Source: Candidatus Egerieisoma sp. (GTDB lineage: Bacteria; Bacillota; Clostridia; UBA1212; UBA1255). From it: a stretch of 64,000 nt of DNA. The stretch lies in NCBI GenBank assembly GCA_045125595.1, contig JBGVNN010000054.1, forward strand, positions 74,182-138,181, in the 5' to 3' direction. Positions 64 through 24,274 of this stretch are shown one piece after another. The notes beneath the pieces are model-generated. The model was not told the origin of the DNA. It saw only the letters and a list, made by a program, of their open reading frames with translations, and made no database searches. Both the position numbers and the translations under genes were made by a program. Each line of letters starts with the position of its first letter. Positions within the stretch are counted from its first letter, which is position 1.

Positions 64-1911
64 TTATCGTTTCATTCGCTTCCCATGTTTCTTTACAGGG
101 GTATGTTGTTGTGGCTTTTTGATTACAAGAGGAGCCACGAGACAACCGGGTTTGTTGCCTATTAAATCTTTGCGCCCTGCCTTGGTGAGAGCGGCAATGA
201 CAGCTTGCCTGTTTTCCGGACGGAAGTATTGCAAAAGTGCGCGTTGTTCGGCTTTTTGCTCTTTTGTTTTAGGAACGTAAACCTTTTTCATGGTGTACGG
301 GTCAATTTCCGAATAAAACATACAAGTGGAAATTGTGCCGGGGGTGGGGTAGAAATCCTGAACCTGCTGCGGCCTCAATTTCTGCTCTTTTAAGAAGAGT
401 GCAAGCTCGATAGCGTCCTTTAATGTCGAACCCGGGTGGGATGACATCAAATAGGGAACCAAATATTGTTCTTTCTTTACTTTTTTGCTTATAGCAAAGT
501 ATTTTTGCGCAAATTTCTTGTATGCTTCTATGTGCGGCTTGCCCATTTTGTCCAAAACTGCTGCGGAACAATGCTCGGGTGCTACCTTTAATTGTCCGCT
601 GACATGATGCTCTACAAGCTCTCTGAAAAATTCGTCGTTTTTATCTAATAACAAATAGTCGTATCGTATGCCCGAACGAATAAATACTTTTTTTACTTTT
701 GGAACTTTGCGCAAATCTTTGAGGATAGAGAGGTATTCCGAATGGTCAACCTTAAGCGCTTTACATGGAGTGGGAGCGAGGCACTTTTTCGACGGACACA
801 AACCGTATTTTTTTTGCTTCTCGCATGACGGAATTCTGAAGTTGGCTGTCGGCCCGCCCAAGTCGTGAATATATCCTTTAAAGTTTGGCTTTTGCGTCAG
901 GAGCTCTGCCTCGCGCAAAATCGACTCGCGGCTTCGGCAAGTAACAGCCCGGCCTTGATGAAATGCGATTGAGCAAAAATTACACGCTCCAAAACATCCT
1001 CTGTTGTGAGTTATCGAAAACTCTACTTCGGAAATTGCGGGCACGCCACCGGCTTCGTCGTATGAGGGATGCCAGGTTCGCTCAAATGGGAGCTCATATA
1101 TTGCATCTAATTCTTTAGTTGTAAGAGGAGGCATGGGCTGATTTTGCACAAGCCATCCCGAGCGTTGCTCTTGTATAAGCGGCCTGCCGCGTACGGCGTC
1201 TTGCTCATCAAGCTCGATGCGGCAGGATTCTGCGTATTTTTCTTTACTTTGTGTAATTTCTTTAAATGATGGCAGGTAAATCGCGCCTTTTTTTGTAGGG
1301 CGATTTTTTGTCATGTAGCAAGTGCCTTTGATATCTGTAAGTGATGCAATCGGTTCACCGTTATTTAATCGCCTGACAATCTGACGTGTTTGATTTTCAC
1401 CCATACCGAAAGAAAGCATATCTGCCTTGCAATCTTCTAAAACGGAAGGCATAACCTCGTCTTTCCAGTAATCATAGCCTGCGAAACGTCTTAAAGACGC
1501 TTCCAGTCCTCCTACAATTATGGGGATATTTCCGTATATATCTCTAATCTTTTTGCAGTAGACAGTGAGCGCACGGTCGGGGCGAAGACCCGCCTTTCCG
1601 CCCGGGGAGTAGGCATCTTCACTACGCTTCTTCTTTGCAGCCGTGTAGTGCGCAACCATTGAATCGACATTACCTGAATTTACCATAAAACCCAAACGTG
1701 GTCGGCCGAATCTTGTGAAGTCTTCGTTTGTTTTCCAATTGGGTTGTGCAAGGATAGCAACTCGCATACCTTCATCTTCGAGAACCCTTGAAATAATAGC
1801 AGTGCCGAACGACGGGTGGTCGACATATGCGTCGCCGGTGACAAGGACAAAATCAACCTCATCCCAGCCTCTTTCTTGAACTTCTTTTAATGTAATAGGT
1901 AAAAACGCCAT
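64..1911 (-). CDS. ygiQ: YgiQ/UPF0313 family radical SAM protein
   Basis: N-terminal VTGDAYVDHPSFG, radical SAM motif RGCFGACNFC, QVQDFYPTP. Start placed at ATG 1911 (GAAAGGCGG RBS upstream). Confidence 0.9.
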   Translation of the reverse strand: MAFLPITLKEVQERGWDEVDFVLVTGDAYVDHPSFGTAIISRVLEDEGMRVAILAQPNWKTNEDFTRFGRPRLGFMVNSGNVDSMVAHYTAAKKKRSEDAYSPGGKAGLRPDRALTVYCKKIRDIYGNIPIIVGGLEASLRRFAGYDYWKDEVMPSVLEDCKADMLSFGMGENQTRQIVRRLNNGEPIASLTDIKGTCYMTKNRPTKKGAIYLPSFKEITQSKEKYAESCRIELDEQDAVRGRPLIQEQRSGWLVQNQPMPPLTTKELDAIYELPFERTWHPSYDEAGGVPAISEVEFSITHNRGCFGACNFCSIAFHQGRAVTCRSRESILREAELLTQKPNFKGYIHDLGGPTANFRIPSCEKQKKYGLCPSKKCLAPTPCKALKVDHSEYLSILKDLRKVPKVKKVFIRSGIRYDYLLLDKNDEFFRELVEHHVSGQLKVAPEHCSAAVLDKMGKPHIEAYKKFAQKYFAISKKVKKEQYLVPYLMSSHPGSTLKDAIELALFLKEQKLRPQQVQDFYPTPGTISTCMFYSEIDPYTMKKVYVPKTKEQKAEQRALLQYFRPENRQAVIAALTKAGRKDLIGNKPGCLVAPLVIKKPQQHTPVKKHGKRMKR

Positions 1912-1954
1912 TTGCGAGCCGCCTTTCAAAAAATGCTGCCTATACTATAGCACG

Positions 1955-1986
1955 TTTTGCGCAAAATTGAAAGCTGTGACGCAAAA
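1955..1986. repeat. Spaced inverted repeat TTTTGCG-N18-CGCAAAA (copy 1 of a pair)
   Basis: ttttgcg caaaattgaaagctgtga cgcaaaa, in the ygiQ/gap divergent intergenic region. Confidence 0.9.
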
Positions 1987-2048: not shown

Positions 2049-2080
2049 TTTTGCGCAAACAGATGCGATTATGCGCAAAA
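2049..2080. repeat. Spaced inverted repeat TTTTGCG-N18-CGCAAAA (copy 2 of a pair, 94 bp after copy 1)
   Basis: ttttgcg caaacagatgcgattatg cgcaaaa. Confidence 0.9.
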
Positions 2081-2196
2081 CTGTAGCGGCGGGCGGAGAA
2101 GGACTTTCCGTCAGTAAAAATAAAAGGGTTGTTTTTTTTGCAAGCGTGGGGTATAATAGCAAATGGTAAATTTTTATTTTTTTGGAGGTAACAATT

Positions 2197-3210
2197 ATGG
2201 CAGTTAAAGTTGCTATTAATGGTTTTGGACGTATCGGCCGTCTTGCATTCAGACAAATGTTTGGAGCCGAAGGATATGAAGTAGTTGCAATTAACGATTT
2301 GACAAGCCCTGAGATGCTTGCACATCTTTTAAAGTATGATACAGCACAGGGAAGATATGACGGACACACAGTTGAGTGTGACGAGACATCTATCACAGTT
2401 GATGGCAAGAAAATCACAATTTATGCAGAGAAAGACGCTAAAGATCTTCCTTGGGGAGAAATTGGTGTTGACGTAGTTCTTGAGTGTACAGGTTTCTACA
2501 CATCAAAAGCTAAAGCACAGGCTCACATCGATGCAGGTGCTAAGAAGGTAGTTATTTCTGCTCCTGCAGGAAATGATCTTCCTACAATCGTTTACAGCGT
2601 TAACGAGAAAACTCTTACAGCTGATGACAAAATCATTTCTGCTGCTTCTTGTACAACAAACTGCCTTGCTCCTATGGCTAAAGCTCTTAACGACTATGCA
2701 GCTATCCAGAGCGGTATCATGACAACAGTTCATGCTTACACAGGTGACCAAATGGTTCTCGATGGTCCTCACAGAAAAGGCGACAAGAGAAGAGCAAGAG
2801 CTGCTGCAGCTAACATCGTTCCTAACTCAACAGGTGCAGCTAAAGCTATCGGTCTCGTTATTCCTGAGCTCAACGGTAAACTTATCGGTTCTGCTCAAAG
2901 AGTTCCTGTTCCTACAGGTTCAACAACAATTCTTATCGCAGTTGTTAAAGGTGCTGAAGTTACTAAAGAGGGCATCAACGCTGCAATGAAGGCTGCTTCT
3001 TCAGCTTCATTTGGTTACACAGAGGAAGAACTCGTTTCAAGCGACATCATCGGTATCAAATATGGTTCACTCTTCGATGCTACACAAACAATGGTATCAA
3101 AGATTGCTGATGACACATACCAAGTACAAGTTGTTTCATGGTATGACAACGAGAACTCATATACAAGCCAAATGGTTAGAACAATTAAGTATTTCGCTGA
3201 GTTGAACTAA
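2197..3210 (+). CDS. gap: Type I glyceraldehyde-3-phosphate dehydrogenase
   Basis: INGFGRIGR, catalytic [14 protein letters not shown]; GGAGG RBS before ATG 2197; strongly biased codon usage. Confidence 0.98.
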
Positions 3211-3296: not shown

Positions 3297-3328
3297 TTTT
3301 GCGCATATCATGTGGCTTTTGCGCAAAA
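3297..3328. repeat. Spaced inverted repeat TTTTGCG-N18-CGCAAAA
   Basis: ttttgcg catatcatgtggcttttg cgcaaaa, between the gap terminator and tmcAL. Confidence 0.9.
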
Positions 3329-3401: not shown

Positions 3402-4658
3402 ATGAACAAAACCAAAATTTGCGGGATTATTTGCGAATATAACCCTTTTCACAACGGACACATGCACCAAATAGCAGAAGCGCGTCGACTTTCCGGAGCT
3501 GATTATGTGATTGCTGTAATGAGTGGTGATTTTGTGCAGCGGGGTGAGCCGGCGGTGATTGATAAGTGGGCGAGAACAGAAATGGCCTTGCGTTGCGGTG
3601 CCGATATTGTCCTGGAGTTGCCGACTGTTTTTGCGCTTTCTTCTGCGGAATATTTCGCGACTGGTGCGGTTGATGTCTTGCAGAAAACAGGCATTGTGAC
3701 TCATATTTCTTTTGGAAGTGAAAATTTTGAGGGTCCGGATGGCGCCATTTCATTGAAAAAAATAGCTTCTGAGACAAAAAACGGACCTGTTGTTGATACT
3801 GAATTATTGAAAAAAGGCGCGTCATTTGCGGCTGCCAGCAGAAATTCCGTAGTGACGCTTCCTAACGATGTGTTGGCTACGGAATATTTGCGCGCGATTG
3901 AGAGGCTTGGCGCAAAACTGGAAGTTGTGCCGATAAAACGCATTGGAGATGGCCATGTTGGAAAGGGTAGCGCTATGTTCATACGTGGGCTGCTATCTGA
4001 GGGGAATTTAGCAGAAACGAGAAAATATATGCCAGCAGTTGCGTTTGAAATCTTGCAAAGAGAAATTAATAACGGCAAGGGACCGGTAAAAGCGGAAATG
4101 TTTGGAAATGTTATTTTAGCCGACTTGCGTCGGCTGGGCGTGGAGGGATTGCGCGAAAATCCATTTGTTAGCGAGGGTTTGGAATACAAAATTTATGCTG
4201 CAGCTTGCGAAAGTGGTAGCTTTGGTGAATTTGTATCGCAATGTACTTCAAAGAGATATACATCTTCTCGTATAAGGCGAGCTGCTTTTGCGTCGATGCT
4301 TGGCATAAAGCGCAAAATGCTTAGTGTGCCGGTACCTTATATAAGGGTTTTGGGAATGCGTCGTAGTTGTGGCAAACTTATGGATTTGCTGAATTTAAAA
4401 GCAGAAGTTCCGGTGGTGACATCAAAAGCGAAATTTTTACGTGCTTTAGAGTTGCGTGAGAGAAGTTTTGAAGAAGAGTCTACAAAAATATTTGAGGGTG
4501 GGTTTTGCGCAAATGATGTATCTTATGACGCAAAAATTTCTGAGGATTTTTTCAGAATAGAAAATATCGCAGCAGATTTATATTCGCTTGCTTTTTTGAA
4601 TCCAAAAAGTCGTGTTGCCTCTTCGGAAATGACGCATCCGCTTGTGTTTGCTGATTAA
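3402..4658 (+). CDS. tmcAL: tRNA(Met) cytidine acetate ligase (YlbM/TmcAL, HIGH nucleotidyltransferase)
   Basis: GIICEYNPFHNGH, VMSGDFVQRGEPA, SAEYFA, PNDVLATEY, KRYTSSRIRR, YIRVLG. Confidence 0.9.
   Translation: MNKTKICGIICEYNPFHNGHMHQIAEARRLSGADYVIAVMSGDFVQRGEPAVIDKWARTEMALRCGADIVLELPTVFALSSAEYFATGAVDVLQKTGIVTHISFGSENFEGPDGAISLKKIASETKNGPVVDTELLKKGASFAAASRNSVVTLPNDVLATEYLRAIERLGAKLEVVPIKRIGDGHVGKGSAMFIRGLLSEGNLAETRKYMPAVAFEILQREINNGKGPVKAEMFGNVILADLRRLGVEGLRENPFVSEGLEYKIYAAACESGSFGEFVSQCTSKRYTSSRIRRAAFASMLGIKRKMLSVPVPYIRVLGMRRSCGKLMDLLNLKAEVPVVTSKAKFLRALELRERSFEEESTKIFEGGFCANDVSYDAKISEDFFRIENIAADLYSLAFLNPKSRVASSEMTHPLVFAD
4286..4317. repeat. TTTTGCG-N18-CGCAAAA copy inside the tmcAL coding sequence
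   Basis: ttttgcg tcgatgcttggcataaag cgcaaaa. Near copies in the same gene at 3886-3917 (ATTTGCG-N18) and 4503-4535 (N19). Confidence 0.8.
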
Positions 4659-4780: not shown

Positions 4781-4812
4781 TTTTGCGCATAATTGTGTTC
4801 GTGTGCGCAAAA
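4781..4812. repeat. Spaced inverted repeat TTTTGCG-N18-CGCAAAA (copy 1 of a pair)
   Basis: ttttgcg cataattgtgttcgtgtg cgcaaaa, 45 bp upstream of the spoVM start. Confidence 0.9.
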
Positions 4813-4853: not shown

Positions 4854-4885
4854 TTTTGCGTAAATTGAAGGTTGCATACGCAAAA
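4854..4885. repeat. Spaced inverted repeat TTTTGCG-N18-CGCAAAA (copy 2 of a pair, 73 bp after copy 1)
   Basis: ttttgcg taaattgaaggttgcata cgcaaaa. Confidence 0.9.
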
Positions 4886-5100: not shown

Positions 5101-6246
5101 TTGATGATTAAGTTGACAAGAGCAGCAAAGACGAAGCAGTTTCCGGATGAGATGAGTGAAAGATTGTATAACCAATATGGTGGATTGAATAATGATTTAT
5201 TTTATGAAAAGCTAAAAAAATTAAAGCAAGCAGTAAAAAATGTCGCAATTTGCATGCTTAAAATCGAGTGCCTTGAAAAGCAGGGATTACCGTCTGATTG
5301 CAATATTGTTTTCAGTAATACTACTCAATTGTATGTAGACAAAAGCGGCAAAAAGAAGATTTATAAGAATACGACAGCGTATATAACGCAAAATTCCCAA
5401 AAATATAATGTTAGTAAAAAATATCCGTATCCGGCGAGATTGACTAGTCATATGGATTATAACGATCCTCAAAATCCGATTTGTAGGTTGTTTTTGCAGG
5501 CAAGATTAGAATTGAAACGAGAAAATGAATATTTGATTGAGTGTGAGACCAAAATTGCGAAACTTTATTGTGATAGTATTAATAGTATGCCACTATCAAA
5601 AAAAGTAAAAAAATTCGATTTGCAGGTTGAAATAAAAAATGCGTACGCAGAATTGATTGCTTCAGATGATCGGCTTTTGATTTTAAAACAACTCCAAGAA
5701 TTTTTGGGAATAGATTATTGTATAATAACGGATTCTTATGATGTTTTGCAAAAAAATACATATCAAAATAAAATTATTGACGAAAATGGACGTCAATTTA
5801 GATCAAAAAATGAAATGATTGCAGCAGGATGTATGGCTGATGCCGGGGTGAGTTGCATTTTTGAACCATTTTATCCGGGAACAAATTGGCGTGCTGACTT
5901 TGCATTGATATGTTCAAGGAATATTGATGTTTTGCCTACGGAAATTAACTGCACTGCCGGAAGTTTGCGGGGGATTTCCGAAGTGAAAGACAGCTATGAG
6001 TTGAAGCAGATTTTTGTAGAAATAACCGGCAAAAGAGGAGAAGAAAAATACGATAAAAAGTTGATTGAAAAACGTAAGTTGTCAAAGGAAAAAGGGATTC
6101 CTTTGGTCTTTGTAGACATGACCGATTATCCGGACGAAGGAGGACAAGTACAGACACATTTGGAGTATAAAAAGTTAATGGAGATTTTTCAGAATTTGTA
6201 TGTCGGATACATAGTTGCGGCAGGCCAATTTGTGACACCTTATTAA
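5101..6246 (+). CDS. Hypothetical protein with a C-terminal PD-(D/E)XK-like (DUF559/Vsr-like) nuclease domain
   Basis: C-terminal FRSKNE...FEP...ADF...FVEITG...Y..K..EK...GIPLVFVD pattern. The N-terminal ~220 aa are helical, Lys-rich and unrecognised; the gene is AT-rich. Confidence 0.55.
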   Translation: MMIKLTRAAKTKQFPDEMSERLYNQYGGLNNDLFYEKLKKLKQAVKNVAICMLKIECLEKQGLPSDCNIVFSNTTQLYVDKSGKKKIYKNTTAYITQNSQKYNVSKKYPYPARLTSHMDYNDPQNPICRLFLQARLELKRENEYLIECETKIAKLYCDSINSMPLSKKVKKFDLQVEIKNAYAELIASDDRLLILKQLQEFLGIDYCIITDSYDVLQKNTYQNKIIDENGRQFRSKNEMIAAGCMADAGVSCIFEPFYPGTNWRADFALICSRNIDVLPTEINCTAGSLRGISEVKDSYELKQIFVEITGKRGEEKYDKKLIEKRKLSKEKGIPLVFVDMTDYPDEGGQVQTHLEYKKLMEIFQNLYVGYIVAAGQFVTPY

Positions 6247-6980: not shown

Positions 6981-7844
6981 ATGAGAGAATTGAGAGGTGC
7001 CCCGGTGGCGGCGGCAATTACTGAAGAAAGTAAAGAAAAAATTGCTTTTTTGAAGAAAGAGGGTATAGTACCTACATTAGCAATTATTCGAATTGGAGCC
7101 AGAGCGGACGATGAGTCGTATGAAAAAGGTGCGGAGAAAAGGTTCGCGACTGCAGGCGCCGAAATCAAGAAATTTATTTTACCGGAAGATACAACCCAAG
7201 AAGAATTGGAAGATATAGTAAAAAAAATAAATAATGATGATACTATACATGGTATTTTAATGTTCCGACCATTGCCGGCACATATGAATGAAGAAAAAAT
7301 CAAACAGATTATTTCTATGGAGAAAGATGTAGATGGTATGTCTTATGCAGGACTTGGTAGTTTGATTGCCTCTAAAGCAGGTAAAATACAAGCATATGCG
7401 CCGTGTACACCAACGGCAGTGATTGAAGTTCTTGATTTTTACAATATTGATCTTACAGGCAAAAAAATTGCGGTTGTGGGAAGAAGTGCTGTTGTCGGAT
7501 TGCCATTGGCGGTTATGCTTATACAAAGAAATGCCACAGTAACAGTCTGTCATACGAGAACAAAAAATCTGCCGGATGAATGTCGTGAAGCAGATATAAT
7601 AATTGCGGCAGCAGGTAAGGCAAAGATGATTGGTAAAGAGCACCTTTCAGTTGGACAAGTGTTGATAGATGTCGGTATTAATTTTATTGATGGCAAAATG
7701 TGTGGAGATATAGATTTTGAAGTGGCTGCTGAGTATGCTTCGGAAATTACACCGGTGCCAGGTGGTGTGGGCGCAGTAACTACGTCTGTTTTGTTGAAAC
7801 ACACAGTAAATAGTGCATTTAAGAAATTGAAAAATGAAAAATAA
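6981..7844 (+). CDS. folD: Bifunctional methylene-THF dehydrogenase/cyclohydrolase
   Basis: KDVDG, PCTP, VVGRSAVVG, ATVTVCH, IDVGIN, TPVPGGVG. Confidence 0.95.
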   Translation: MRELRGAPVAAAITEESKEKIAFLKKEGIVPTLAIIRIGARADDESYEKGAEKRFATAGAEIKKFILPEDTTQEELEDIVKKINNDDTIHGILMFRPLPAHMNEEKIKQIISMEKDVDGMSYAGLGSLIASKAGKIQAYAPCTPTAVIEVLDFYNIDLTGKKIAVVGRSAVVGLPLAVMLIQRNATVTVCHTRTKNLPDECREADIIIAAAGKAKMIGKEHLSVGQVLIDVGINFIDGKMCGDIDFEVAAEYASEITPVPGGVGAVTTSVLLKHTVNSAFKKLKNEK

Positions 7845-7867
7845 TAAATGGTGAGGACAGATTTATC

Positions 7868-9664
7868 ATGAAAGAGATAAAGAAAAGAGACGAAATAGAC
7901 GCTAAATATAAATGGAAGTTAGAGGATCTTTTTGAAAATGCAGAAGCATGGCAGAAAGCAGCAGATGCGGCTGAAATAAAAATTTCCGAAATATCTAAAT
8001 TTTCAAAGAAATTCACAAAATCCGGACAGTCGTTATTTGATTGTTTAAAAGCTTTGAATGAACTTGGCGGAGAAATAACAAAGTTATATGTGTATGCTTA
8101 TATGAAAAGAGACGAGGATAACACAAACGCAAAATCGCAAGAAATAGCAGGTAAAGCGGATTATTTGTTGACGAAATATTCAGAGAAAACTGCTTTTTTT
8201 GAACCTGAATTGTTGAGATTAAAGCCGGGAAGATTGGATTCGATGAAAAAAAGAATGACCAAGCTTAAAGAGTATGAATTTTTGATAGACGAAATAATGA
8301 GAAAAAAATCACATATTCTCAGTCTGTCAGAAGAAAAGCTGCTTGCTATGTCCGGAGAAGCTACATCAGTAGGTCAAGATGTTTTTACTATGTTTAATAA
8401 TGCAGATATACAATTTCAGCCTGTTGTAAATGAAAACGGAGAAAAATCGGATCTCACAATAGGTAGGTATATTAAATTTTTAGAGTCGAAAGACAGAAAA
8501 GTAAGAAGAAGAGCGTTTAAATCTATGTATGAGACATACGCAAACCACAAGAATACTTTAGCAGCGGCATATGCCGGTAATGTTAAATCAGATGCATTTT
8601 ATTCTAAAGCACGCAAATTTAGATCGAGCTTTCTTGCTTCTTTGTATCATGACAATATACCTTCAAAGGTATATAACGGTTTATTAAAATCTGTTCACGG
8701 GCATATAGCTCTTCTAACTAAATATTTAAAAATTAGGCAAAAAGTTCTGGGACTCAGAAAAGTTCATATGTACGATTTGTATGTATCTTTGGTTGATGTC
8801 CCTGAAAAAACATACACGTTTGAAGAGGCAAGGACTATAGTAATAGAAGCTTTGAAACCTTTAGGCAAAGATTATGGAAAAGTGTTAAAAAAGGCTTTTT
8901 CTGAAGGTTGGATTGATGTTTGTGAAAATCAAGGTAAACGTGTTGGGGCTTATTCTTGGGGATGCTATGATTGCCATCCGTATGTATTGCTTAATTGGCA
9001 AGGAACAATTAATGATGTATTTACTTTAGCACATGAATTGGGACATGCGCTGCATTCGTATTATAGTAATGCATCACAGCCTATTCAGTATGCAAATTAT
9101 AAAATTTTTGTTGCTGAAGTTGCATCTACTGTAAATGAAAATTTACTTATGGAATATATGCTCAAAAAAAGCAAAGACAATACAGAAAAAGCATTTTTGT
9201 TAAATCATTATCTTGAAGAATTCCGAGCAACTGTTTACAGACAAACTATGTTTGCTGAATTTGAAAAAGATGCTCATAAAATGTATGAGACAGGTGATGT
9301 ACTCACGGCAGAATCTTTATCAGAGTTGTATATGGGACTGCAACATAGGTATTTTAAGAAAGTTGTAAAAATTGACGAAGAAATTGCTATGGAATGGGCT
9401 CGAATACCGCATTTTTATACGTCATTCTATGTCTATAAATATGCGACGGGATTTTCGTCGGCAACACATCTTGCGGCAGGTATTTTAAGTGGAGATAGGG
9501 GGAAAATTGCGTCTTATCTTGAATTCTTAAAGAGTGGTGGCTCTGATTATCCATTGGAAATACTCAAAAAAGCAGGTGTTGATTTGTCTACTACAGAGCC
9601 TATTGATGCAGCATTTGATGTTTTTGAAGAAAAATTAAATCAATTTGAGGCGTTGATGTTTTAA
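7868..9664 (+). CDS. pepF: Oligoendopeptidase F (M3B)
   Basis: TLAHELGHALH zinc motif, AEVASTVNE, WARIPHFY, YVYKYATG. Confidence 0.95.
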   Translation: MKEIKKRDEIDAKYKWKLEDLFENAEAWQKAADAAEIKISEISKFSKKFTKSGQSLFDCLKALNELGGEITKLYVYAYMKRDEDNTNAKSQEIAGKADYLLTKYSEKTAFFEPELLRLKPGRLDSMKKRMTKLKEYEFLIDEIMRKKSHILSLSEEKLLAMSGEATSVGQDVFTMFNNADIQFQPVVNENGEKSDLTIGRYIKFLESKDRKVRRRAFKSMYETYANHKNTLAAAYAGNVKSDAFYSKARKFRSSFLASLYHDNIPSKVYNGLLKSVHGHIALLTKYLKIRQKVLGLRKVHMYDLYVSLVDVPEKTYTFEEARTIVIEALKPLGKDYGKVLKKAFSEGWIDVCENQGKRVGAYSWGCYDCHPYVLLNWQGTINDVFTLAHELGHALHSYYSNASQPIQYANYKIFVAEVASTVNENLLMEYMLKKSKDNTEKAFLLNHYLEEFRATVYRQTMFAEFEKDAHKMYETGDVLTAESLSELYMGLQHRYFKKVVKIDEEIAMEWARIPHFYTSFYVYKYATGFSSATHLAAGILSGDRGKIASYLEFLKSGGSDYPLEILKKAGVDLSTTEPIDAAFDVFEEKLNQFEALMF

Positions 9665-9666
9665 TT

Positions 9667-10386
9667 ATGAGAAAAGAGTTTGATGGTGTTGTAATTGAAA
9701 ATCAGCAAGTTGTTTGCGACGCAGTAAATTGCCACAATTTAAGTATAAAAGGCATTGCAGAGTTCCGTTCTGAAATTGAAGCTGATCTTGTAGATGTTTC
9801 CGGTGAAGCGTGCTTTGAATCTTATGTCACATGTGATAAATTTACAGTAAAAAACAGATGCGTATGCAAAAACTCATTACTTACAATATCAATACGAGTA
9901 CTCGGTGCATTAGCTGTTTATGGTAAAATTAATTCAGAAACGATAATTGTCAATGGTGCTTTGAAATTCAGAGATACGCTTAGAACTGCGGCGCTTCTGA
10001 TACGTGAGGGTTCGCTTGTAAAAGGAAGTGCGAAGCTTCGGGCGCCGCAATGTACAGTTAATGGAGTTCTTAATAATTCCGGTGTTGTAATTTCTGAAAA
10101 CTTAAAAATTTCAAGTAATAAAATGTCGAGAATTCAGGAAATACGTACAGATAAGTTTAATGTAAAATTAAACGAAAATGCAAAAGAAGGTAAATTTGAA
10201 ACCGAATACTTATTGGCTTGTGATTTTGTTGATTGCTTTGAAGCAGATATAGAATATTGTAACATAGACAGATTGTATTGTGATAGCGCAATTATACGAA
10301 AAGGTTGCACTATTCATGAGGTTTTATACAGAGATAGTATTGAAATAGAGCAAGGAGCGCACGTGGAAAGGTTGTCAAGAACATGA
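9667..10386 (+). CDS. Bactofilin / polymer-forming cytoskeletal-like beta-helix protein
   Basis: Repeating (V/I)xG...(I/V)xA beta-strand pattern, Cys-rich, with a C-terminal IRKGCTIHEVLYRDSIEI ending like Bacillus YhbE/F-type proteins. Confidence 0.5.
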   Translation: MRKEFDGVVIENQQVVCDAVNCHNLSIKGIAEFRSEIEADLVDVSGEACFESYVTCDKFTVKNRCVCKNSLLTISIRVLGALAVYGKINSETIIVNGALKFRDTLRTAALLIREGSLVKGSAKLRAPQCTVNGVLNNSGVVISENLKISSNKMSRIQEIRTDKFNVKLNENAKEGKFETEYLLACDFVDCFEADIEYCNIDRLYCDSAIIRKGCTIHEVLYRDSIEIEQGAHVERLSRT

Positions 10387-16745: not shown

Positions 16746-16777
16746 TTTTGCGCAAAACTAATGTGTAAGGCGCAAAA
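16746..16777. repeat. Spaced inverted repeat TTTTGCG-N18-CGCAAAA (copy 1 of a pair)
   Basis: ttttgcg caaaactaatgtgtaagg cgcaaaa. Confidence 0.9.
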
Positions 16778-16839: not shown

Positions 16840-16871
16840 TTTTGCGCACGAAGATGGCAATTGGCGCAAAA
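16840..16871. repeat. Spaced inverted repeat TTTTGCG-N18-CGCAAAA (copy 2 of a pair, 94 bp after copy 1)
   Basis: ttttgcg cacgaagatggcaattgg cgcaaaa, just upstream of the spoIIID promoter. Confidence 0.9.
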
Positions 16872-17241: not shown

Positions 17242-18498
17242 TCGATTAATAATTCTTTCTGCGGTTAAATCGGGAATATCACATGCCACATCGAAGTCTT
17301 TCCAAGCATTGTAAATAGGAAGACGCTCTTGCTCAAGCTTTTCGAGGCTGCAAGACAGAGAAATAGGACGCCCGTCAGTGGCTAGTTCGTTTAAAGGACG
17401 TTTTAACATGACAACAATACCATTTTGACTCATAAGAGGACGATTTTCTGGGTTCTTGATAACACCTCCGCCCGTGGCTATTACGAGGCCGCTTTTGCGC
17501 GCAAATTCATCAAGAACTTCACTTTCTATTTTACGGAAAGCCGGTTCACCTTTTTGGGCGAAGAAGTCGCAAATACTCATTTGAATTCTTTTTTCGATTT
17601 CAAAGTCGATATCAACAAATTCGCGAGAAAGTTTTGTGGCAAGAAGAGCACCTATGGTGCTTTTTCCGCAGCCGGGCATGCCGATGAGTACAATGTTTTT
17701 GGTTTGCATTTCGATTTGCGCCGTTATACTATCGATTGACGCAAAACTCTTTGTGCTTTCAAGGCCATCTGTTGTGATTGTTTCTGTGAAAATTTCACAC
17801 GCTTGCTTTGCTTGAGCAACAAGCATAGGCAAGCCGTTAATAAAAGGTATGCCTAACCTTTCTGCATCTAACAAAAGTTTTGTTTTTGCCGGATTGAAAA
17901 TAATATCGATAACACCTTTGCAAGATGAAAATTTTTCAAGTTCAACAGCAGAAGTGCCATTTTTAGGAAACATTCCTAAAGGAGTTGTGTTAACGATAAA
18001 ACTTGCGTCACTGTGACGCTCGTAAACATTATGGTAGTTATCGTCTCCGCTACGAGAAATTACGACAACTTCAGGACAGCCTAAATCACGCAATGCAGTG
18101 CATGCCATTACAGAACTGCCTCCACTGCCTAAAACAAGCGTTTTTCTTTCAGAAACATTAAAATTGGCTTTTTTTACCAAATAAGTAAAACCGAAATAAT
18201 CAGTGTTATAACCATAAAGCTTTCCGTTTCGGCGAACGACTGTGTTCACACTGCCGATTTTGGCAGCGGTATCAGAAACTTTATCGCAAACAGAAAATGC
18301 AAGTTTTTTATAAGGAATTGTAACATTGATACCATCAAAGTCGCCTGAGCGAAGAAATTCTTCAGCCAAATCAGGTGATTTTTCAAATAAAGTATAGTTG
18401 TAATCAGAAAAATAACCGTGAATTTGCGGCGAAAAGCTGTGCCCAAGCTTTTCGCCTAAAAGTCCGCTTTTAAAATTGCCAAAACCGCATAATTTCAT
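17230..18498 (-). CDS. aroE: Shikimate dehydrogenase-shikimate kinase fusion (AroE-AroK)
   Basis: HSFSP, NVTIPYK, NTDYFG, NTTPLGM (AroE), then GMPGCGKST, FR..E, ATGGG, RP (AroK). Confidence 0.92.
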   Translation of the reverse strand: MKLCGFGNFKSGLLGEKLGHSFSPQIHGYFSDYNYTLFEKSPDLAEEFLRSGDFDGINVTIPYKKLAFSVCDKVSDTAAKIGSVNTVVRRNGKLYGYNTDYFGFTYLVKKANFNVSERKTLVLGSGGSSVMACTALRDLGCPEVVVISRSGDDNYHNVYERHSDASFIVNTTPLGMFPKNGTSAVELEKFSSCKGVIDIIFNPAKTKLLLDAERLGIPFINGLPMLVAQAKQACEIFTETITTDGLESTKSFASIDSITAQIEMQTKNIVLIGMPGCGKSTIGALLATKLSREFVDIDFEIEKRIQMSICDFFAQKGEPAFRKIESEVLDEFARKSGLVIATGGGVIKNPENRPLMSQNGIVVMLKRPLNELATDGRPISLSCSLEKLEQERLPIYNAWKDFDVACDIPDLTAERIINRLKI

Positions 18499-20799: not shown

Positions 20800-22149
20800 T
20801 CACTCCTTGTTTATATTTAACATATCATAATCCTGCCAAAAAAGAGGATAAGATTTATTTACTGCCTGCGAATCCATCACTGTGAGCTCATCTGAGCAAA
20901 CAGTCGCGGCAATTGCAGCTGTCATAGCTATTCTGTGGTCGTTGTGACTGCTGACATTACCTCCTTTGAGACGGAATATGTCCGCATCGCCGTTGCTTTT
21001 CCCTTTAATAATCAAACCATCCTCTGTAATTGTGATATCTGCACCTAAAGCGCTAAGCAACTCGCAAACGGTTGCGAGTCTGTCACTTTCTTTTAATCTC
21101 AAGCGTTGCGCATTGTATATCCTCGTCGTACCTTCGGCACAAGTAGCCGCTAATGATAAAATGGGAACCAAATCCGGTATATCCGCGGCATCTATTTCGA
21201 TGCCGCGCAGTTTTGCGCCGTCAACAGTGATGTTGCGCAAAACGCTGCCCGCAACATCACTGTCGCCGGCGGCGCGCCGCTCGCATTCGCTCGCGGCTTC
21301 TATTTCTATCTTCGCGCCAAATCGTTTGAGTATATCAATAACAGCTTTATCTCCTTGCTTGGAATCCTCGCGAAGCCCTGTCATACGAATTTTATTATTT
21401 CCGATTGCTCCGGCAACAAGCCAAAATGCAGCGTTTGACCAATCTCCGTCAGCGTAGAAAGTGAGATTTTCGTCAAAAAGACGATTTTTGTGCGAGCCGT
21501 CGATTGTAATAAGAGAATCGCCTTCAACTACAACATCAACACCGAAGTGTGAAAGAACTTCTAATGTCATATCAACATAAGGGCGAGACTCTAATTTTCC
21601 GATAATGTGAATTTCGCTTTTTGAGTCAAGTAACGGAAGTGCTAAGAGCAAACCTGTTATATATTGAGAAGAAATATTGCCTGCGATCTCGAATTTACCG
21701 CCGCGAAGCTTTCCGTATGTTTTATATGGCAAAGTGCCGACTTCATCCAAAATACATCCGTGTTTGATTAACTCTTCGCGAAGAGGCGACAGGGGTCTTT
21801 GCGGAAGTCTGCCTTCGGGGTGGAATTTTGCGTTAACACCCAATGCACATACAACAGGCAACATAAATCGCAATGTTGAGCCGCTTTCTGCGCAAAACAT
21901 TTCGGCGTCTTCTTGTGGCTCTGATATGCCGTGTACGGAAATTACTCCTTCGCCGGTTGTGATTTTTGCGCCCAACGCTTGCAAACATCTTATTGTTGCA
22001 TTTATGTCGTCGGAAAATTTACCGTCGCAAATGATTTTAGTATATTTGCCATACAAAGCAGCTGCAATGAGAAGTCTGTGTACATGTGATTTAGAAGGTA
22101 TTGCTTTTATTGTGCCTCTTAATTCGGGGCGGTAAAGATTCGTTGTCAT
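20800..22149 (-). CDS. aroA: 3-phosphoshikimate 1-carboxyvinyltransferase
   Basis: PSKSHVHR, ESGSTLRF, ISSQY, PYVDMT, RLKESDR, DHRIAM, KSYP. Confidence 0.95.
   Translation of the reverse strand: MTTNLYRPELRGTIKAIPSKSHVHRLLIAAALYGKYTKIICDGKFSDDINATIRCLQALGAKITTGEGVISVHGISEPQEDAEMFCAESGSTLRFMLPVVCALGVNAKFHPEGRLPQRPLSPLREELIKHGCILDEVGTLPYKTYGKLRGGKFEIAGNISSQYITGLLLALPLLDSKSEIHIIGKLESRPYVDMTLEVLSHFGVDVVVEGDSLITIDGSHKNRLFDENLTFYADGDWSNAAFWLVAGAIGNNKIRMTGLREDSKQGDKAVIDILKRFGAKIEIEAASECERRAAGDSDVAGSVLRNITVDGAKLRGIEIDAADIPDLVPILSLAATCAEGTTRIYNAQRLRLKESDRLATVCELLSALGADITITEDGLIIKGKSNGDADIFRLKGGNVSSHNDHRIAMTAAIAATVCSDELTVMDSQAVNKSYPLFWQDYDMLNINKE
21211..21242. repeat. TTTTGCG-N18-CGCAAAA copy inside the aroA coding sequence
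   Basis: ttttgcg ccgtcaacagtgatgttg cgcaaaa (encodes VLRNITVDGAKL on the - strand). Confidence 0.85.
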
Positions 22150-24025: not shown

Positions 24026-24274
24026 GAGAGTTTTGCGCACAGGTTACAAGTTTGACGCAAAACATAATAGTTGTGAGAATCGTTTTTCTGGTTTTGCGCA
24101 CACAAGATAAGTTTTGCGCAAAAATAAATGTGTGAGGCATGTGGGTTTTAATAGTAGCTGAGAGTTTTGCGCACAGGTCACAAGTTTGACGCAAAACGAA
24201 ATGTGTGTGTGTGAGATGAGTTTTGTTGATAGCCGTGAGTTTTGCGCACGGGGGGTTAATTTGACGCAAAACTC
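24026..24274. repeat. Tandem array of four TTTTGCG-N18-CGCAAAA units
   Basis: Units at 24031-24062, 24092-24123, 24165-24196 and 24240-24271 (periods 61, 73, 75). Units 1 and 3 are almost identical, and TGTGAG recurs in the linkers. Confidence 0.92.

Follow-up and report, generated by a model that had tools for sequence, protein, structure and literature searches.

We analysed a 64,000-nucleotide stretch of DNA from Candidatus Egerieisoma sp. (the window, G000:C54:74182-138181, where G000 is the source assembly of 2.16 Mb in 68 contigs with 36.9% GC). Here we describe a palindromic motif that recurs along it, TTTGCG-N17-19-CGCAAA, named family E, together with the unannotated gene of the protein P0002 that lies among its copies. 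We propose, with a probability of about 0.58, that this motif is the recognition palindrome of P0002, the two forming a system like that of repetitive extragenic palindromes (REPs) and REP-associated tyrosine transposases (RAYTs), on a different enzyme fold. Four of the seven genes of the P0002 family in this assembly stand beside arrays of a palindrome of their own, and the system therefore behaves like the partnership of REPs, or of REP doublets forming hairpins (REPINs), with RAYTs.

A palindromic DNA site concentrated around P0002

The motif is a real palindromic DNA site of about 30 bases. Exact matching, run with spacers of N16-20, found 18 copies in the 64-kb window, where 100 dinucleotide-preserving shuffles averaged 0.07 (maximum 1 per shuffle), and 40 copies in the whole assembly; reversed control patterns gave no match. 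The spacer is N18 in 33 copies, N19 in six and N17 in one, and every other spacing tallied from -5 to 59 occurs 0-2 times, except for an overlapping TTTGCGCAAA form (27) and N58 (3). When the arms are extended to 14 letters, 28 sites in the assembly are perfect and eight carry one mismatch, and two-mismatch sites occur in background numbers. The 27 aligned N18 sites of contig C54 give a consensus of about 34 bp, (A/C)GTTTTGCG(C/T)A.AA ... T..TGCGCAAAACT, and the oriented, extended family-E reading is GTTTTGCG(C/T)AAAA..TGTGCGCAAAACT. Searching the literature for the letters of the palindrome returned, among the matches listed, only primers or papers that were unrelated by title and abstract. 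Rfam at gathering thresholds, applied to the window and to the stretch of C54 upstream of it (L001, in which positions 7149-10150 are C54:61348-64349), found only one tRNA and one tetrahydrofolate (THF) riboswitch, with no family matching the motif.

The copies are concentrated in one region. Contig C54 holds 31 of the 40, with 29 within 42 kb (C54:56.9-98.4 kb), and P0002 (C54:79.3-80.4 kb) sits amid this cluster with nine sites in the 5 kb upstream of it. By our own gene calls (1823 genes, 90% coding), the non-coding share of the genome, roughly 10%, contains 23 copies, and the other 17 are intragenic. Sixteen of the 23 intergenic sites precede one or more gene starts (those of folT/response regulator, focA, cysE, ygiQ/GAPDH, tmcAL, P0002, znuA/spoIIID and the aro operon), and four lie between convergent genes at C54:58718-58996. 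At about 8 of 10 loci, intergenic sites point in the direction of local transcription; the directions of replication and transcription are confounded here, with only the array before the aro operon preceding a lagging-strand operon, and that array reads co-directionally with the lipoprotein/aro operon. The genes of the cluster form an ordinary housekeeping set (folC, folT, a two-component pair, focA, cysE-cysS-sigma-thyA-folA, GAPDH, tmcAL, fchA-folD, znuA, spoIIID and the aro operon) of a spore-forming, Clostridia-like host.

Among 46 genomes of the order, the extended form TTTTGCG-N18-CGCAAAA occurs 28 times in the source assembly, 26 times in genome G001 and 0-1 times in each of the other 44. 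Within the same set, G001 alone has an orthologue of P0002, syntenic and 64% identical, and the remaining matches are partial and at most 50% identical; motif and P0002 are both absent from eight of nine congeners. G001 prefers the form TTTGCGTA..TACGCAAA and has about half of its sites in the part of its genome that is syntenic with C54:55-100 kb.

The first-pass annotation of this DNA had likened the motif to chromosome-architecture or uptake-type sequences. The analogy with uptake-type sequences fails, and that with genome-wide architecture sequences finds no support, given the number and placement of the copies: DNA uptake sequences (DUS) and uptake signal sequences (USS) run to hundreds or thousands of genome-wide copies, and here there are 40 in all, 31 of them on one contig and 29 within 42 kb, 23 non-coding, in just two of 46 genomes. 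An origin or terminus signal is likewise ruled out: GC skew is positive along all of C54 with no switch, so that neither origin nor terminus lies inside the cluster, and dnaA is on another contig (C6). Canonical ParB/parS is ruled out by the location of both ParB_N genes on C6 and C4, contigs without sites.

P0002, its paralogues and adjacent palindromes

P0002 has no Pfam match at E<=5 beyond noise and no PDB sequence at E<=5, and the protein atlas gave nothing usable. Only six clusters in a 5.8-billion-protein database match it. Its orthologues P0005-P0007 are 78-89% identical; of two metagenome scans for relatives, the first returned none and the second only paralogues of 36-37% identity. 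In genomes G003 and G004 tmcAL is followed directly by fchA, and P0002 is therefore absent there. A profile search of 1.84 billion representatives gave 24 full-length-type matches at E<=1e-30 (about 24 clusters at 50% identity) and 3354 matches to the core at E<=0.001. Core matches of about 1150-1260 residues are also among these results, and in two of ten matches sampled, P0067 and P0094 (514 and 1220 residues), the nuclease core is C-terminal in RecD-like (AAA_30/UvrD_C_2) helicases.

An AlphaFold2 model of P0002 built from 16 sequences (predicted local distance difference test score, pLDDT, 79; predicted template modelling score, pTM, 0.77) suggests an N-terminal domain of no assigned kind followed by a Vsr-like C-terminal domain of the restriction-endonuclease fold. 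In exhaustive structural alignment with VIA-align, residues 221-381 match Vsr (1cw0) with Z 10.1 over 113 aligned residues at a root-mean-square deviation of 3.1. Further matches of this domain are the homing endonuclease I-Bth0305I (3r3p, Z 9.3), RAP domains (Z 9.1 and 8.1), NGO0050, which is DUF559-like (3hrl, Z 8.0), and TnsA (1t0f, Z 7.0). Residues E238, E255, D266, E307 and K324 are invariant in 19 family sequences, and we infer that these acidic and lysine residues may be catalytic.

The source assembly holds four close family genes, on C54 (P0002), C49, C56 and C67, and distant paralogues on C14, C43 and, as a second gene, on C67, with contig-end fragments on C21 and C45. The C49 gene is preceded by four copies of TTTCGT-N21-ACGAAA, the C56 gene is followed by four copies of TTTCTG-N19-CAGAAA, and the C14 gene has doublets of TTTCTC-N21/22-GAGAAA on both sides. 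These palindrome families share one build, TTTT-core ... core'-AAAA, in which the core differs. At least two sites within 500 bp are found at 81 of 1823 genes of the assembly versus four of the seven family genes, each of the four with a different palindrome family. Across the assembly, TTTCGT-N20/21 (family A) has 57-59 copies in arrays of period 73, TTTCTC-N21/22 (family B) has 54 copies in doublets about 84 bp apart, TTTCTG-N19 (family C) has 18 and TTTCAG-N19 (family D) has eight; by count, 86-91% of the copies of families A-D are intergenic. Contigs bearing these four families include C2, C7, C8, C9, C10, C13, C24, C25, C30, C32 and C49. The C14 gene (C14:210-1259, within locus L044, G000:C14:1-1700) is flanked by 164-nt direct repeats, 95% identical and 1260 bp apart, each containing one of these family-B doublets.

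This pairing of gene and array is seen in G001 too, and family genes at G003:C4, G003:C52, G008:C1 and G008:C10 likewise stand beside their own palindrome, as do three of five metagenome loci (L051, L053 and L054); at the other two (L050 and L052) no palindrome was seen, on contigs that end about 210-230 bp after the gene. In G008, 23 copies belong to a family of its own, whose arrays immediately follow four copies of the gene; four other genomes have 0-1 copies of it. Family A has no copy in G001, where no C49-type gene was recognised among the matches listed (typing by our own alignment). A methylation or very short patch (VSP) repair reading suggested by the GCGC core fails to generalise, as the arms of families B, C and D are free of CpG.

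The spacing of neighbouring sites points to a defined arrangement on the DNA. We collected 80 centre-to-centre distances below 260 bp from the five families, many of them from tandem copies and thus not independent. They fall on a ladder of 42-43, 52-54, 61-63, 72-75, 83-85, 92-94, 104-105, 126 and 199 bp, with 137.5, 139 and possibly 217.5 bp off it, and give a resultant of 0.89 at a period of 10.4-10.5 bp. Such a ladder of distinct spacing classes nevertheless speaks for proteins that line up along a single face of the DNA duplex.

Copies within and between genes

The first-pass annotation had listed seven intragenic copies, in ygiQ, tmcAL (three), the aroE-aroK fusion, aroA and a 700-residue open reading frame (ORF). 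All seven are present by exact matching, at coordinates one higher (Table 1), because the earlier reading had counted one extra leading T. They use all three reading frames, and the five unrelated peptides quoted for them are reproduced. When synonymous codons were permuted within each gene, 100 times, the genome-wide intragenic count was 1.13 +/- 0.98 (maximum 4) versus the 17 observed, an excess of about 15-fold; the intragenic count is therefore not that expected from shuffled codons. For N18 alone the comparison is 10 observed versus 0.28, and for the genes of the cluster seven versus 0.22.

A match to each of 14 intragenic sites of the source assembly was found among the G001 loci compared, one of them a doubtful orthologue of 26% identity. 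At eight of these 14 the arms are identical in 12 of 12 letters (96/96 together); their spacers are identical in 89 of 144 letters, and the host genes of the two genomes agree at 41-57% of their third codon positions. Intragenic sites not common to G001 include those in MBOAT, aroE-aroK and aroA, and at the latter two the arms are less conserved than the spacers. The codon-shuffle excess, the use of three frames, the conservation of arms in G001 and the Glu-to-Lys changes that completed the right arms of tmcAL sites 1 and 2 (below) support the earlier suggestion that selection acts on the DNA site: the letters of the DNA are constrained, as opposed to the encoded protein. An origin of the intragenic copies by chance, through codon usage and amino-acid composition in an AT-rich genome, has a practically nil probability: the arms do translate as common dipeptides (FA, LR, FC with RK, AK, AQ) and motif-free orthologues already have near-misses, but the shuffled counts, the sharply peaked spacers, the empty reversed controls and the intact arms at the eight orthologous sites refute it.

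The three copies in tmcAL allow their origin to be traced. In a codon alignment of tmcAL from the source assembly, G001 (about 70% identity), G003 and G004, the protein segments that contain sites 1 and 2 are conserved and free of indels, and all three codon positions are occupied by sites in G001 as well. No motif variant was seen at the tmcAL loci of the motif-free congeners G003 and G004, which have near-misses at sites 1 and 2 (for example, TTTGCG..GTGCAGAA). Relative to these two genomes, the right arm of each site was completed by a synonymous change and a Glu-to-Lys change. The alignment thus indicates that sites 1 and 2 arose in place without indels and were then conserved, so that the view of the first-pass annotation, that the copies were point-mutated into place and not inserted, stands for these two sites. 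For site 3 an insertion is possible, because the segment that contains it occurs only in the source assembly and G001; the flanking protein is poorly conserved and absent from G003 and G004. Elsewhere, an intragenic family-E site at G001:C37:6402 and a near-miss on G000:C40 (about 34.1 kb) differ by one transition per arm (CG in G001, TG in the source assembly), which indicates another gain or loss in place. As a separate observation on this neighbourhood, the GAPDH protein (window 2182-3210) is 98-99% identical to those of G001 and G003 and that of the adjacent tmcAL only 62-68%, an unusually steep contrast.

As for a spread by insertion of whole units, the evidence points both ways: intergenic family-E sites are extra blocks relative to G003, but spacers differ between copies, and tmcAL sites 1 and 2 are free of indels. 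Among the intergenic sites, G003 is without the site-bearing blocks of about 112 bp (ygiQ-GAPDH) and about 50 bp (GAPDH-tmcAL) that are present in the source assembly and G001. At one intergenic spot, a four-copy family-A array in the source assembly (C10:91729-91980) and a single family-E site in G001 (C27:13013) have the same start, and the spot appears to act as a shared landing place.

Strain contigs from four animal-gut and metagenome runs were compared with C54:54.2-74.2 kb, using the best-supported rows only. Array copy number varies among strains, and the within-site differences listed fall in spacers; the ends of strain contigs coincide with a 4x93-bp array at L001:4519-4826. A segment of about 3 kb carrying the response regulator and histidine kinase (L001:7149-10150) is missing in some strain contigs. 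It is bracketed by two family-E sites of the same orientation, and the joints fall at or within a few bases of them, at 7161/10119 and 7103/10115. In one strain contig, L001:10160 is followed by 7148, the kind of joint that a tandem copy or a circle would give, and G001 is without the response-regulator and kinase genes at the same place. Nearby, the THF riboswitch (RF01831, 48.5 bits; L001:6965-7075, minus) precedes the folT-folC operon, with a family-E site 74 bp further upstream, and the tRNA gene (L001:11154-11225, minus) adjoins the five-site array before cysE. Many loose ends of strain contigs lie at the borders of this tRNA, which therefore marks a variable junction.

The features of the window are collected in Table 1. 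For the 700-residue ORF (window 59613-61715, minus), which had been labelled GH106-like, no Pfam match was found at E<=0.01, and this label is not confirmed.

Table 1. Family-E palindromes and associated genes in the window. Arm and spacer values are letters identical at the G001 counterpart; empty cells have no entry.
Position	Strand	Feature	Match or comparison
64-1929	-	ygiQ	Pfam Radical_SAM_N + DUF3362
891..919		Palindrome, N17, in ygiQ residues 337-347	Exact match; G001 site N17, arms 12/12, spacer 13/17
1956..1985		Intergenic palindrome, ygiQ (-)/GAPDH (+)	Exact match; within the ~112-bp block missing in the G003 spacer
2050..2079		Intergenic palindrome, 94 bp (9 helical turns) past the 1956 site	Exact match; same ~112-bp block
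3298..3327		Intergenic palindrome, GAPDH terminator/tmcAL promoter	In the ~50-bp block extra vs G003; G001 site displaced ~22 bp
3402..4658	+	tmcAL, hosting three intragenic sites, directly upstream of P0002	Pfam HIGH_NTase1, E 3e-102
3887..3916		tmcAL site 1, N18, frame 2, peptide EYLRAIERLGAKL	No indel; arms 12/12, spacer 10/18; G003 right arm two letters short
4287..4316		tmcAL site 2, N18, frame 0, peptide AFASMLGIKRKM	No indel; arms 12/12, spacer 13/18; G004 near-miss TTTGCA..CGTGAA
4504..4534		tmcAL site 3, N19, frame 1, peptide GFCANDVSYDAKI	Arms 12/12, spacer 8/19; segment only in G000/G001
4782..4811		Intergenic palindrome 319 bp upstream of P0002	Exact match; kept in G001
4855..4884		Intergenic palindrome 73 bp (7 turns) past the 4782 site and 246 bp before P0002	Exact match
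5101..6246	+	P0002, unannotated, 381 aa, proposed cognate binder	No Pfam family; modelled Vsr-like PD-(D/E)XK C-terminal domain
16747..16776		Intergenic palindrome, znuA (-)/spoIIID (+)	Exact match; G001 has two sites in this spacer
16841..16870		Intergenic palindrome, 94 bp past the 16747 site	Exact match
17715..17745		Palindrome, N19, in the aroE-aroK fusion (Pfam Shikimate_dh_N + SKI), residues 252-262 between the enzyme domains	G000-specific; arms 5/12, spacer 14/19
21212..21241		Palindrome in aroA (Pfam EPSP_synthase), peptide VLRNITVDGAKL	G000-specific; arms 4/11, spacer 10/18
24032..24270		Four-palindrome array, starts 24032/24093/24166/24241, spacings 61/73/75	Upstream of the minus-strand lipoprotein/aro operon; one G001 site here
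59969..59998		Palindrome in the 700-aa ORF, peptide GFCVIAIDFAQN	Exact match; arms 12/12, spacer 14/18

A proposed REP/RAYT-like partnership and its rivals

REP-like repeats are common. To our knowledge, the RAYT transposase is the only enzyme class firmly linked to them, and most repeat families of Firmicutes have no known partner. Our literature search for a REP-associated nuclease other than RAYT returned only RAYT/REP papers, none of which links a Vsr or restriction-endonuclease fold to palindromic repeats. In the passages of PMC5581495 that deal with REP/REPIN-RAYT systems, these are short palindromic repeats, mostly extragenic, with each family tied to a gene flanked by its own repeats; the REP/RAYT work cited there includes Nunvar 2010, Bertels and Rainey 2011 and Ton-Hoang 2012. 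The system described here resembles that picture in its tens of copies, its tandem arrays, its several gene/repeat pairs per genome, the absence of repeats where the gene is absent and a copy number that varies between strains. The repeats are predominantly extragenic (86-91% for families A-D, and 23/40 for family E in a genome that is 90% coding), and cognate genes are flanked by their own family (four of seven in the source assembly, with further cases in G001, G003, G008 and three of five metagenome loci).

The system also differs from REP/RAYT systems. P0002 is not an HUH/Y1 (IS200/IS605-like) transposase but, by its model, a protein of Vsr-like PD-(D/E)XK fold belonging to no Pfam family. 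Unlike REPs, family E conserves only its arms and leaves the middle free, is regional, keeps helical-repeat spacings and has 17 of its 40 copies in genes, at least two of which appear to have been made in place without insertion. The family-E sites listed are without the GTAG or CGTC tag named in PMC3733652. The same paper (Di Nocera et al. 2013) concerns palindromic repeats within coding sequences that are translated, by its title insertions adding residues; in contrast, tmcAL sites 1 and 2 overwrite existing codons and add none. With regard to the proteins of known structure, the C-terminal domain of P0002 is modelled with the same fold as Vsr and I-Bth0305I, but it has no detectable sequence similarity to them and is joined to another N-terminal domain, and no mismatch-repair or intron/intein context was seen.

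In the mechanism that we propose, a dimer, or dimer of dimers, of P0002 would recognise both arms, which lie about two turns of the helix from each other, irrespective of the spacer. Proteins on neighbouring sites would touch along one DNA face, and these contacts would explain spacings of whole helical turns. Sites would accumulate near the gene of their binding protein, the non-coding ones appearing as extra blocks and the intragenic ones made in place by point substitutions, including amino-acid changes, with the arms then held. There would be three copies in tmcAL because tmcAL abuts P0002, and the cluster of sites upstream of P0002 runs into tmcAL coding sequence. The complex could serve self-regulation, local chromosome organisation or the promotion of rearrangement at cassette borders.

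Several observations weigh against this proposal. The link between P0002 and the motif is drawn from adjacency, co-occurrence and analogy with the paralogues, and at a cluster density of about one site per 1.4 kb, the two sites upstream of P0002 are not significant alone. The orientation of intergenic loci with transcription would also fit an RNA-level or promoter-linked role. A Foldseek search of the PDB with the P0002 model found nothing at E<=0.001, and the fold call relies on VIA-align Z scores of 8-10, a range that also holds unrelated best matches. The residue two past E307 is T or A and not K, so that the lysine of the classical (D/E)xK is displaced and catalysis by P0002 is uncertain. 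Three of the seven family genes (both on C67 and that on C43) have no exact-pattern site within 500 bp, the first C67 gene having imperfect palindromes only. Family D, with its eight copies, has no family gene nearby, and genome G007 has 12 family-A-like copies with no C49-type gene recognised among the matches listed. Finally, the three tmcAL sites are not helically phased together, being 400 and 217.5 bp apart.

The rival explanations each address part of this evidence. Were the sites operators of a conventional transcription factor unrelated to P0002, which is quite unlikely, they would define a clustered regulon (folate/one-carbon, aromatic amino-acid, glycolysis and zinc) with the intragenic copies as auxiliary or roadblock sites. 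The 16 of 23 intergenic sites upstream of a gene start, the prevailing orientation with transcription and the folate-rich neighbourhood (folC, folT with its THF riboswitch, thyA, folA, fchA and folD) are consistent with such a regulon. Operators are hard to square, however, with 17 of 40 sites inside genes, four sites between convergent genes, almost no tail of weaker sites, arrays of 4-7 sites whose copy number differs between species and strains, and a position relative to the tmcAL promoter that shifts by about 22 bp between species. Moreover, the sites are extra relative to G003, where the same genes operate in their absence, and four other families of the same build exist, all but family D with a P0002 paralogue nearby, with one spot occupied by family A in the source assembly and by family E in G001.

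The 42-kb cluster could instead act like a centromere or organise the chromosome, as parS/ParB, ram/RacA and matS/MatP do. Its binder, whether P0002 or some other protein, would then seed a large complex for segregation or for chromosome capture in sporulation; we consider this distinctly unlikely. In parS/ParB centromere clusters and KorB operators, palindromic sites occur in coding and non-coding DNA round the gene of their binder, at positions conserved between species. The 29 sites in 42 kb are similar in this respect, falling in coding and non-coding DNA alike round a candidate binder gene mid-cluster, at positions kept across species, and their helical phasing suggests a higher-order complex; spoIIID, too, is inside the cluster. 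But the sites are unrelated in sequence to canonical parS, no ParB_N gene is nearby, and the cluster contains neither origin nor terminus, with dnaA and both ParB_N genes on site-free contigs. Motif and P0002 are absent from 44 of the 46 genomes, eight of the nine congeners included, about half of the G001 sites are outside the syntenic region, array copy number is strain-variable, and the sister families are dispersed genome-wide in intergenic arrays. An RNA hairpin (a REP-like mRNA stabiliser, processing site or attenuator) read or cut by P0002 is very unlikely, even though each site can form a stem of 9-10 bp with a loop of 12-14 nt at -9.4 to -14.1 kcal/mol, the orientation of about 8 in 10 intergenic loci agrees with transcription and RNA-binding RAP domains are among the fold matches. 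Spacing by whole helical turns is a property of duplex DNA, and the position beside the invariant core is unpaired, C opposite A, at five of 24 N18 sites on C54 (counted by eye). Fold z-scores are modest, from -0.9 to -4.0, three of five tested sites being matched by at least 10 of 200 shuffles (10, 40 and 10); the sites have no U-tract and match no Rfam family. None of the operator, parS-like and RNA explanations accounts for the paralogue-specific arrays.

A more far-reaching form of our proposal, which we regard as rather unlikely, is that P0002 and its paralogues are an undescribed class of repeat-associated nuclease, a Vsr-fold analogue of RAYTs, each propagating and maintaining its own palindrome family and writing sites into nearby coding DNA. 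P0002 would nick near-cognate sequences and bias short-patch repair to the cognate arms, preferentially near its own gene; copies would be inserted in non-coding DNA, and coding sites would be written without a change in length. Such writing would explain the all-or-none character of the sites and why they accumulate up to about 25 kb from the gene in both directions. It would also explain the arm-concentrated substitutions at the aroA and aroE-aroK sites found only in the source assembly, and the acceptance of Glu-to-Lys changes in tmcAL.

If P0002 and its palindrome are indeed partners in a REP/RAYT-like system, a protein family unrelated to RAYTs would be paired one-to-one with palindromes, and the partnership would have evolved more than once; an unnamed protein family would also gain a testable role. 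Copies made in place in housekeeping genes and conserved between species are unusual, and show a constraint at the DNA level strong enough to fix amino-acid changes, while the ladder of helical-turn spacings points to a defined nucleoprotein structure. The two-component cassette that varies between strains is bordered by sites, and for this reason the system may also influence which genes are present in this abundant livestock-gut lineage.

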